DNA of 64,000 bases from contig CBDCMH010000004.1 of NCBI GenBank assembly GCA_965218935.1, positions 103,965 to 167,964 of the forward strand, in the 5' to 3' direction. The notes under the pieces are model-generated. The model was not told the DNA's origin, ran no database searches, and was given only the letters and a program-made list of their open reading frames with translations. The stretch comes from Acidobacteriota bacterium. Its GTDB lineage: Bacteria; Acidobacteriota; UBA6911; RPQK01; JADFOI01. Every line of letters begins with the position of its first letter. The first letter of the stretch is position 1. Positions 10,750-41,518 of this stretch are shown here, piece after piece. The position numbers and the translations under genes were made by a program.

Positions 10750-10873
10750 AAAATCCTCTCTTCCTGCCAAGTGCAATTCGAGCTAGCTTTGTATGACTCC
10801 CCGCCTCCCTTTCAGCGTCGGGAAGCTTGGCTGCTCCATGTTAAACCTTTCATAAGGGTTAAGACAACCCCGA

Positions 10874-12374
10874 ATTGCCTCATCAAAAATCTATTCGAAA
10901 TGGATACGTTGCCTCATTAAAAAATCTATTCGAAATTGCCTGGCCCTGAGCAGGGGAATAGAAGTGTCCTCCATGAAGGAATGGAGGGCACCAATGAGGT
11001 TAACGATGGCAGAAAAGCGTGTATTGATCAAAAGTTTTGCCCCCCGCTACCGGAAGAAGGGCAAGAAGGTGAAGGGGGAAGTGTTGACGGAGTTTACCCA
11101 AATGACGGGCTACAACCGCTGCTATGGAGCCTATCTGCTTCGCCACCAGGGCAAGCGGATCCGGTTGAGCCCCAAGCTGGTGGCGGTAGGGGATATCGGC
11201 AAGAGAGTACGGCGAGAGCGGGCCCGCAAATACGACCAGAAAGTTCTAAAGGCGCTGACGATGATCTGGGAGATACTGGACTATTTGTGTGGCAAACGTC
11301 TGGTCGCGATTTTGCCGGAAGTGGTACCCATTTTACAAAGACATGGGGAACTGAAAGTGGATGCCAGCACCCATGAGCGGTTGATGCAGATCAGCGCCGC
11401 CACCATCGATCGGCTGCTGGAGCCCGAAAGGTGCAAGCACCGTCTCAAAGGACGATCCGGAACCAAGCCGGGAACGCTGCTCAAACACCAGATTCCGATC
11501 AAGCGTTTCGCCGACTGGCAGGAGGATCGCCCCGGTTTTGTGGAAGTGGACCTGGTGGGCCATGAGGGAGGCCAGGGTCGGGGGGACTACCTTCAAACCC
11601 TGGATGTGACGGACGTGTACACGGGCTGGACAGAGGTCCGAGCGGTGCGCAATAAGGCCCAGGTGTGGGTCCTGGAAGCGATGAAGCTGCTTCAGAAGCG
11701 CTCGCCCTTCCCTTGGCTGGGGATGGCTTCGGACAACGGCAGCGAGTTCATCAACAAGCACTTGATTCGTTTTTGTGAGCAGGAAAAGATCAGCTTCAGC
11801 CGAACCCGCCCCTCGCGCAAGAATGACAACCCTTATGTGGAGCAGAAAAACTATTCGGTGGTTCGGCGGGCCGTGGGTTATGCTCGCTACGAGGGAGAGC
11901 GAGAACAGGAGCTGGTGAACGAGTTGTACGATCGGCTGCGACTGCAGATCAACTTTTTCAAGCCGGTCATGAAGATGGTGGCCAAGCAACGTCGAGGGTC
12001 TCGGATCTGGAAAAAGTATGATGTGCCGAAAACTCCCTACCGGAGGATCTGCGAGTCCCCTGAGGTGGCGGACAAGATCAAGCGGGAACTGGCCCGAGAG
12101 TATGAGAAGCTCAATCCGGCCCAGCTGGCACGGCAGATCGGCTGGCTTCAGAATTGCCTTTTGCTCAAACCGACTCCTGAGCAGAAGAAACGATGGGAAG
12201 CGGGCTGGATGTGAAAATCTTTCTCTTGCTGCAGGCTGCGGGTGTTGGGCAAGGGGTTGCCACTCCTCTGGTTGGTGCTTTTTACCACCACTTTTTGCAA
12301 TCCCTTTCGGATAGATTCTTAGTGAGGCAACGAATACCCTTTGGAATAGATTTTTACGTGAGGCAACGGGCCCC
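10874..12374. mobile_element. ~1.5 kb IS element, copy 1 (single rve/DDE transposase; doubled terminal repeats)
   Basis: Sequence 10874-12374 is essentially identical to 39989-41479. The left end carries two direct 24-bp copies of GCCTCAT(C/T)AAAAA(A)TCTATTCGAAAT. The right end carries two copies of the reverse-complement motif (GGATAGATTCTTAGTGAGGC, GGAATAGATTTTTACGTGAGGC). The boundary was defined by where the two copies diverge from their flanks. Confidence 0.8.
10964..12214 (+). CDS. DDE transposase (integrase core / rve superfamily), IS copy 1
   Basis: 416 aa. N-terminal HTH-like region, then a catalytic core with ...FVEVDLVGHEGG...DVTDVYTGW...MASDNGSEFINKHLIRFCEQEKISFSRTRPSRKNDNPYVEQKNYSVVRR. 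The DNGSEF motif and the K/R-D-N-x-x-x-E pattern match the retroviral-integrase-type DDE fold. Confidence 0.8.
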   Translation: MSSMKEWRAPMRLTMAEKRVLIKSFAPRYRKKGKKVKGEVLTEFTQMTGYNRCYGAYLLRHQGKRIRLSPKLVAVGDIGKRVRRERARKYDQKVLKALTMIWEILDYLCGKRLVAILPEVVPILQRHGELKVDASTHERLMQISAATIDRLLEPERCKHRLKGRSGTKPGTLLKHQIPIKRFADWQEDRPGFVEVDLVGHEGGQGRGDYLQTLDVTDVYTGWTEVRAVRNKAQVWVLEAMKLLQKRSPFPWLGMASDNGSEFINKHLIRFCEQEKISFSRTRPSRKNDNPYVEQKNYSVVRRAVGYARYEGEREQELVNELYDRLRLQINFFKPVMKMVAKQRRGSRIWKKYDVPKTPYRRICESPEVADKIKRELAREYEKLNPAQLARQIGWLQNCLLLKPTPEQKKRWEAGWM

Positions 12375-39923: not shown

Positions 39924-39988
39924 TTTGGTCCCCTGGTGATTCCTGAACCCGATTATATGCCGACGAACCCATTACCCGCAACAAGGCG

Positions 39989-41479
39989 AATTGCCTCATC
40001 AAAAATCTATTCGAAATGGATACGTTGCCTCATTAAAAAATCTATTCGAAATTGCCTGGCCCTGAGCAGGGGAATAGAAGTGTCCTCCATGAAGGAATGG
40101 AGGGCACCAATGAGGTTAACGATGGCAGAAAAGCGTGTATTGATCAAAAGTTTTGTCCCCCGCTACCGGAAGAAGGGCAAGAAGGTGAAGGGGGAAGTGT
40201 TGACGGAGTTTACCCAAATGACGGGCTACAACCGCTGCTATGGAGCCTATCTGCTTCGCCACCAGGGCAAGCGGATCCGGTTGAGCCCCAAGCTGGTGGC
40301 GGTAGGGGATATCGGCAAGAGAGTACGGCGAGAGCGGGCCCGCAAATACGACCAGAAAGTTCTAAAGGCGCTGACGATGATCTGGGAGATACTGGACTAT
40401 TTGTGTGGCAAACGTCTGGTCGCGATTTTGCCGGAAGTGGTACCCATTTTACAAAGACATGGGGAACTGAAAGTGGATGCCAGCACCCATGAGCGGTTGA
40501 TGCAGATCAGCGCCGCCACCATCGATCGGCTGCTGGAGCCCGAAAGGTGCAAGCACCGTCTCAAAGGACGATCCGGAACCAAGCCGGGAACGCTGCTCAA
40601 ACACCAGATTCCGATCAAGCGTTTCGCCGACTGGCAGGAGGATCGCCCCGGTTTTGTGGAAGTGGACCTGGTGGGCCATGAGGGAGGCCAGGGTCGGGGG
40701 GACTACCTTCAAACCCTGGATGTGACGGACGTGTACACGGGCTGGACAGAGGTCCGAGCGGTGCGCAATAAGGCCCAGGTGTGGGTCCTGGAAGCGATGA
40801 AGCTGCTTCAGAAGCGCTCGCCCTTCCCTTGGCTGGGGATGGCTTCGGACAACGGCAGCGAGTTCATCAACAAGCACTTGATTCGTTTTTGTGAGCAGGA
40901 AAAGATCAGCTTCAGCCGAACCCGCCCCTCGCGCAAGAATGACAACCCTTATGTGGAGCAGAAAAACTATTCGGTGGTTCGGCGGGCCGTGGGTTATGCT
41001 CGCTACGAGGGAGAGCGAGAACAGGAGCTGGTGAACGAGTTGTACGATCGGCTGCGACTGCAGATCAACTTTTTCAAGCCGGTCATGAAGATGGTGGCCA
41101 AGCAACGTCGAGGGTCTCGGATCTGGAAAAAGTATGATGTGCCGAAAACTCCCTACCGGAGGATCTGCGAGTCCCCTGAGGTGGCGGACAAGATCAAGCG
41201 GGAACTGGCCCGAGAGTATGAGAAGCTCAATCCGGCCCAGCTGGCACGGCAGATCGGCTGGCTTCAGAATTGCCTTTTGCTCAAACCGACTCCTGAGCAG
41301 AAGAAACGATGGGAAGCGGGCTGGATGTGAAAATCTTTCTCTTGCTGCAGGCTGCGGGTGTTGGGCAAGGGGTTGCCACTCCTCTGGTTGGTGCTTTTTA
41401 CCACCACTTTTTGCAATCCCTTTCGGATAGATTCTTAGTGAGGCAACGAATACCCTTTGGAATAGATTTTTACGTGAGG
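39989..41479. mobile_element. ~1.5 kb IS element, copy 2 (same family and orientation as copy 1)
   Basis: Near-identical to 10874-12374, with at least one nucleotide difference (GCC vs GTC, giving A vs V in the transposase). Same doubled terminal repeats. Confidence 0.8.
40080..41330 (+). CDS. DDE transposase (rve superfamily), IS copy 2
   Basis: Same 416-aa protein as 10964-12214 except SFAPRY to SFVPRY. The track ORF 39936 start is an upstream in-frame read-through; the ATG at 40080 corresponds to copy 1. Confidence 0.8.
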   Translation: MSSMKEWRAPMRLTMAEKRVLIKSFVPRYRKKGKKVKGEVLTEFTQMTGYNRCYGAYLLRHQGKRIRLSPKLVAVGDIGKRVRRERARKYDQKVLKALTMIWEILDYLCGKRLVAILPEVVPILQRHGELKVDASTHERLMQISAATIDRLLEPERCKHRLKGRSGTKPGTLLKHQIPIKRFADWQEDRPGFVEVDLVGHEGGQGRGDYLQTLDVTDVYTGWTEVRAVRNKAQVWVLEAMKLLQKRSPFPWLGMASDNGSEFINKHLIRFCEQEKISFSRTRPSRKNDNPYVEQKNYSVVRRAVGYARYEGEREQELVNELYDRLRLQINFFKPVMKMVAKQRRGSRIWKKYDVPKTPYRRICESPEVADKIKRELAREYEKLNPAQLARQIGWLQNCLLLKPTPEQKKRWEAGWM

Positions 41480-41518
41480 CAACGGGCAAGTAGCCATGAT
41501 AGAGTACCGATCGCGTAT

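Follow-up and report, generated by a model that had tools for sequence, protein, structure and literature searches.

The locus raises the question of why an insertion sequence (IS) that encodes a single transposase carries two copies of its end repeat at each terminus, and to which family such an element belongs. The preliminary description of the window (the entire 64,000-nt stretch of Acidobacteriota DNA analysed here) had regarded this end architecture as unusual and the family as unclear.

Two complete copies of the element, designated A and B, were found in the window in the same orientation. They differed at a single base (C at 11040 in copy A, T at 40156 in copy B), a difference that changes Ala16 of the transposase to Val. 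The boundaries were mapped using both copies together with six copies of 85-95% identity from Acidobacteriota metagenome-assembled genomes (MAGs); the resulting limits (Table 1) correct the interval of 10874-12374 reported previously. The termini, 5'-CGAA...CGGG-3', lie 4 nt outside the outer copies of box 1, the first part of the end repeat. They were confirmed by the clean target site duplication (TSD) of a relative, L096, and many short contigs among the survey loci described below end precisely 4 nt outside the outer box 1.

As had been proposed, the element encodes one transposase with an rve (DDE) core. Its start codon is most likely the ATG at 10994, giving a protein of 406 aa, rather than the GTG at 10964 that gave the earlier length of 416 aa. 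The ATG is preceded by GGAGGG five nt upstream, is the start in all of the aligned homologues and is also the start of a database protein (P0001) with 100% identity. The 1500-bp element contains one uninterrupted ORF; the 156 nt that remain beyond its stop codon, up to the right end, are too short for another gene, and no ATPase helper is encoded. A consensus scan in and around the element revealed no sigma-70-type promoter. The element is an intact and probably active IS.

Table 1. Positions in the window of the two IS copies, their end sites, the transposase gene and the left flanks.
Feature	Position	Strand	Details
IS copy A, complete element, 1500 bp	10871..12370	+	Limits are where similarity ends with copy B and six 85-95% relatives
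L1, outer left site	10871..10901	+	Terminal CGAA; box 1 10875-10882; box 2 10888-10900
L2, inner left site	10909..10936	+	Box 1 10909-10916; box 2 10923-10935
Transposase gene, 406 aa, rve (DDE) core	10994..12214	+	D186, D247 (SDNGSEF) and E283 in 406-aa numbering
R2, inner right site, inverted	12302..12330	-	Box 2 12305-12317; box 1 12323-12330
R1, outer right site, inverted	12337..12370	-	Box 2 12340-12352; box 1 12359-12366; CGGG 12367-12370
Copy A left flank	10865..10870	+	CAA 10865-10867, then CCC
IS copy B, complete element	39987..41486	+	L1 39987-40017; L2 40025-40052; ORF 40110-41330
IS copy B right sites	R2 41418-41446; R1 41453-41486
Copy B left flank	39979..39986	+	CAA 39979-39981, then CAAGG

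Each end of the element carries two bipartite repeats of approximately 26-30 bp, consisting of box 1 (TTGCCTCA) followed by box 2 (AATCTATTCGAAA). The two repeats of one end have the same orientation, and those of the opposite end are inverted relative to them; the box coordinates agree with the two direct motif copies, 9 nt apart, and the two inverted copies that had been noted at the left and right ends, respectively. Site L1 has the composition CGAA-TTGCCTCA-TC-AAAAATCTATTCGAAAT and L2 the composition TTGCCTCA-TTA-AAAAATCTATTCGAAAT; the two copies of box 1 are spaced 34 bp apart at the left end (L1-L2) and 36 bp apart at the right end (R1-R2). The combined motif was observed four times, compared to 0.00 times in shuffles of the window, and box 2 alone was observed nine times in the window, eight of them inside the two IS copies, compared to about one in the shuffles. 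A lone match to box 1 (5923) and a lone match to box 2 (57715) were considered as solo ends and rejected, as the partner box was missing.

The ends of related elements were then compared in a survey of 89 loci with 40-95% identity, made up of 80 loci from metagenomes (44-61% identity) plus the copies from MAGs, plasmids and the window. Box 1 was present twice at the left end in 66 of the 70 loci with enough left flank, and twice in inverted orientation at the right end in 54 of the 63 with enough right flank; controls in the wrong orientation or within genes, with at most one mismatch allowed, were close to zero. The modal box 1 spacing was 34 bp on the left (57 loci) and 36 bp on the right (50 loci), identical to that of the window element. 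The named elements had the same layout. In ISLbi1 the left end carries CTGCATCACGTAATAATCTACTCGAAA as the outer and TTGCATCATCTTAAAATCTACTCCAAA as the inner repeat, and the inverted pair lies at the right end; ISBj12 and an element from Mycobacterium riyadhense have two repeats per end with a period of 35-36 bp. Box 1 was conserved throughout the group and box 2 varied by lineage, being AATCTATTCGAAA in the window element and ISLbi1, GATGCGCGCG in actinobacteria and AATTGCTCC in rhizobia.

These data bear on one explanation of the doubling, namely that the terminal inverted repeats were recently duplicated in tandem in this element only, or that the likeness is due to chance. The adjacency of the repeats is the one observation that speaks for such an event, and against it the two-per-end layout, with box 1 spacing mostly within 1-2 bp, extends to relatives with as little as 40% protein identity and to members of the Spirochaetota, Actinomycetota, Pseudomonadota and Acidobacteriota; shuffled sequence gave no matches to the combined motif. 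The probability that we attach to this explanation is negligible, and a private duplication was ruled out by the family survey. Judged by the end sequences, the doubled repeats are a trait of the whole ISLbi1 group and no peculiarity of the window element. The architecture is therefore not unusual in the sense first supposed, as repeats doubled in this way, with the same spacing, recur in the reference elements and in about 90 further relatives.

The two ends are not mirror images of each other. At the left end, 54 of 57 loci had a linker between box 1 and box 2 that was 1-2 nt shorter in the outer than in the inner site, whereas the linkers of the two right sites mostly had the same length; the ends thus combine conservation with asymmetry. 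Two loci, L006 and L010, had a single hybrid left site in which the head of L1 (CGAA+TTGCCTCA) was fused to the sequence that follows L2. This arrangement looks like a deletion of 34-35 bp by recombination between L1 and L2. Despite its single hybrid left site L006 has an intact 405-aa ORF, so that a second left site may be dispensable, at least in part, or the L006 copy may be dead. On an Acidobacteriota chromosome (OY760074.1) one copy (L008, about 1000-1090) was inserted inside the left end of another, truncated copy, after L2, and the right flank of a second copy (L009) adjoined an R2-like remnant at the correct 35-bp phase. The IS thus seems to insert into or beside its own ends.

The group assignment came from the transposase. 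In tblastn searches of plasmids it matched the ISLbi1 transposase of Leptospira biflexa p74 with 41.5% identity at a query coverage of 95% (E 6e-92), a CDS annotated as 'ISNCY-like element ISLbi1 family transposase'; it also matched a CDS annotated as 'ISNCY-like element ISBj12 family transposase' (39.5%) and, over its full length, an 'ISNCY family transposase' in rhizobia. Copies from actinobacteria matched at 45% in tblastn. In the multiple alignment, identities were 42% to the ISLbi1 transposase and 40% to that of ISBj12, and the homologues were collinear from residue 1 to about residue 390, with 69 invariant columns that included D186, D247 and E283. On the basis of this full-length homology to the ISLbi1 and ISBj12 transposases, the window element is assigned to the ISLbi1 group of the ISNCY family. 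With about 40% identity to the named references, it represents a new IS species within this known group, and its host is Acidobacteriota-like. According to their ISfinder description, members of the ISLbi1 group are about 1.4-1.5 kb long and have a single transposase ORF and no passenger genes; with 1500 bp and one 406-aa ORF, the window element fits this size and content. The family that had been left unclear is thus a catalogued one, and its group shares the end repeats in question.

Other families were considered and rejected. The preliminary description had named rve and IS481 among the profiles that the transposase might match. Of these, the rve core was the only Pfam hit (33.8 bits), and the IS481 model, one of only two NCBIfam transposase models to match, lay far below its threshold (NF033577, 44.5 bits against a cut-off of 224); the termini are also CGAA...CGGG and not TG...CA. 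The second model, IS3 (NF033516), was likewise sub-threshold, with 27.9 bits against a cut-off of 160, and the element has one unbroken ORF instead of a frameshifted ORF pair. Membership of the IS21 family was rejected because no istB helper ATPase gene lies downstream of the transposase gene. Multiple direct repeats at each end, by which the IS21 family is recognised, are present in the window element; this likeness is a resemblance in the working of the element and not membership.

To define the target duplication, flanks were scanned for duplications of 3-8 bp at all offsets. The sole signal that stood out was 5 bp at offsets 4/4, and the signals at 3-4 bp were sub-windows of it. Directly outside the 4-nt termini, a 5-bp TSD was perfect in 8 of 44 loci and matched at four of five bases in a further two, compared to 0.2% (perfect) and 1.8% (four of five) in mismatched controls. 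Only about a quarter of the related loci had a clean TSD, although many of these loci are on contigs assembled from short metagenome reads, in which repeats may be joined chimerically. In finished plasmids the TSDs were AGAAG for ISLbi1, CTACC for M. riyadhense and CACCG for Rhodococcus rhodochrous. The 92%-identical relative L096, on a 482-kb contig, reads gtCAA-GAGTG-[CGAA...CGGG]-GAGTG. About 60 nt past the right end of the IS in L096 (about 1960-2080) there is a tandem heptamer, GACAACA, in about 14 copies.

In the window, the earlier statement that neither copy has a clean TSD was correct. Copy A reads CAA-CCC-[IS]-CCCCT, with CCC again at 12371-12373, and this CCC/CCC pair is a remnant of the duplication. 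The right flank of copy B (41487-41491) is CAAGT, which matches CAAGG on the left at four of five bases. The TSDs of the window copies are decayed. One locus on a Marinobacter sp. M3C plasmid (L091) was flanked by CTGGT (left) and ACCGG (right). Instead of forming a direct repeat, ACCGG matches the reverse complement of CTGGT at four of five bases, which may be the trace of an inversion between two copies.

The sequence 5' of the left TSD was also biased. Among 65 loci the three positions were C in 49, A in 51 and A in 57, within a (g)(t)CAA pattern, and CAA likewise lies to the left of the duplications in L003, L093 and L096. The right flanks of the 65 loci showed no counterpart of the left CAA. 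This bias suggests that the ISLbi1 group has an orientation-specific target preference, CAA|N5|.

The flanks also bear on whether copies A and B could move together with the intervening 27.6 kb, as a composite transposon. Copies A and B are nearly identical and share one orientation, and the interval contains RND efflux and CopC/CopD genes, all of which would suit such a transposon; however, the outer flanks do not match (AACCC to the left of copy A, CAAGT to the right of copy B), copy B has its own four-of-five duplication, and the content of the 27.6 kb is mostly of housekeeping type. A composite transposon is very improbable and, given the mismatched outer flanks, was rejected. The interval (window 12371-39986) encodes a UvrD-family helicase and a PD-(D/E)XK nuclease (AddAB-like), an AcrB-type RND pump with OEP and HlyD partners, a MoxR AAA ATPase, a CoA-transferase and a CopC-CopD-YtkA fusion. 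The whole interval would be lost if the direct IS copies recombined.

The structure of the transposase was modelled with AlphaFold (mean pLDDT 77.9). In the model the N-terminal part folds into two helical domains (residues 5-50 and 82-149); there are also an RNase-H-like core and a small beta domain, with helices following at the C-terminus. Its best structural matches were integrase cores, IstA, TnsB and MuA, in line with the earlier remark that the layout recalls IS21, Mu and Tn7 ends. At the level of profiles little was found: Pfam recognised no DNA-binding domain in the N-terminal 180 residues and, even at E = 10, gave nothing for the isolated N-terminal (181 aa) or C-terminal (109 aa) segments, and among PDB sequences a profile search gave nothing beyond marginal matches to integrases (E about 0.7). 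The structural matches have been solved as intasome or transpososome assemblies, several of the matched entries being tetramers. In enzymes of this kind, each DNA end is bound by two or more protomers.

The identity of the element, its site architecture, its termini and the 5-bp duplication, the last clean in relatives and decayed in the window, were shown by the sequence comparisons and are conserved across the group. We consider it very probable that this is an ISLbi1-group IS in which predicted bipartite transposase sites, paired at each end, would serve a four-site transpososome made by a single protein; by analogy with the structural relatives, that assembly from one protein is most likely of the integrase/IS21-like type. 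From the multi-protomer assemblies of these relatives we infer that four transposase protomers would occupy L1, L2, R1 and R2. The two N-terminal helical domains of each protomer would read box 1 and box 2, and the ends would be synapsed in a tetrameric transpososome of the integrase/IstA/TnsB/MuA kind. Of the four, the outer-site protomers would make the cuts, 4 nt beyond box 1, after which the 3' ends would attack the target with a 5-bp stagger, the left end preferentially beside CAA. The lineage-specific box 2 presumably makes each transposase specific for its own ends, and the asymmetry of the ends may account for the oriented use of the CAA target. Counting against this overall explanation are the decayed TSDs of both window copies and the share of only about a quarter of related loci with a clean one, the single hybrid left site of L006, the lack of a Pfam DNA-binding domain in the N-terminal part, the negative sigma-70 scan and termini other than TG...CA.

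Alternatively, the inner repeats L2 and R2 could be regulatory, with transposase bound at L2 repressing its own promoter and the outer sites alone being synapsed, as in a two-protomer IS. The position of L2, 58-85 nt upstream of the start codon, is where a promoter would be expected, but no promoter-like site was found over L2, and the right end, where there is no gene to regulate, nevertheless has an inner site at the fixed 36-bp spacing in the 54 of 63 loci noted above. The intact ORF of L006, beside its single hybrid left site, would be consistent with a regulatory role; the multi-protomer complexes of the structural relatives, several of them tetramers, count against it. Overall, a regulatory role for the inner repeats appears unlikely when compared to the four-site transpososome.

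For the window itself the outcome is a routine IS annotation, with two near-identical direct copies. The survey also yields a usable definition of ISLbi1-group ends, which is not captured by current NCBIfam and Pfam models: two copies of box 1 per end, with a spacing of 34 bp (left) or 36 bp (right), termini 4 nt outside the outer box, a 5-bp TSD and CAA before the left TSD. The earlier suggestion that this might be an under-described IS group was correct in part. The group is already catalogued; however, ISNCY stands for 'not classified yet', and a search of the accessible literature found no description of the end architecture or CAA preference of the ISLbi1 group or ISNCY. The database holds thousands of homologues, mostly labelled 'hypothetical'. 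We raise only tentatively, as a possibility that we would not favour at present, that the ISLbi1 group is a distinct IS family with an ATPase-free, four-site, asymmetric Mu/IS21-like transpososome that inserts in an orientation set by CAA located 5 bp from the left end. The group offers a compact single-protein system in which to ask why integrase-type transposases use two sites per end.

Among the known systems, Mu, Tn7/CAST (TnsB) and the Tn552/Tn402 type, all of them large transposons or phages, rely on an ATPase target selector (MuB, TnsC or TniB), and none of these selectors is encoded in the window element. The IS21 family (IstA/IstB; IS5376 IstA structure 8b4h) has an IstB-like AAA+ helper that is likewise absent, and Pfam and NCBIfam profiles gave no sequence-level match of the transposase to IstA. 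Members of the IS21 family are about 2-2.5 kb in length, compared to 1.5 kb for the window element. The IS481 and IS3 transposases share with it an rve core with DNGSEF and EQKN motifs, but those families have one binding site per end; the window termini are CG...GG, whereas those of IS3, IS481, Mu and integrases are typically TG...CA.

The closest systems are ISLbi1 of Leptospira biflexa and ISBj12 of Bradyrhizobium. ISLbi1 is active, as three new insertions were reported in L. biflexa strain Ames (PMC2229662). Its copy on p74 has no CAA before the TSD, unlike the window copies, and its box 2, ATCTACTCGAAA, is nearly the same as the ATCTATTCGAAA of the window element. The ISBj12 transposase is longer than that of the window element (503 aa), with a longer C-terminus, and its copy on a Bradyrhizobium ottawaense plasmid (L002 574-606 and 2342-2374) carries, beyond the outer box 1 of either end, an additional inverted stretch of about 33 nt, GTTATAGCGCGACAATCAGGATGAGAGCGCGCA; either ISBj12 has longer ends than the rest of the group or this copy sits in a palindromic repeat. 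Both elements have a 5-bp TSD, of which the window copies show decayed forms, and in other respects they resemble the window element: each is about 1.5 kb, encodes one rve/DDE transposase with similarity along its full length, carries two bipartite repeats per end with a 34-36-bp period and a TTGCCTCA-like box 1, and has its termini 4 nt outside box 1.
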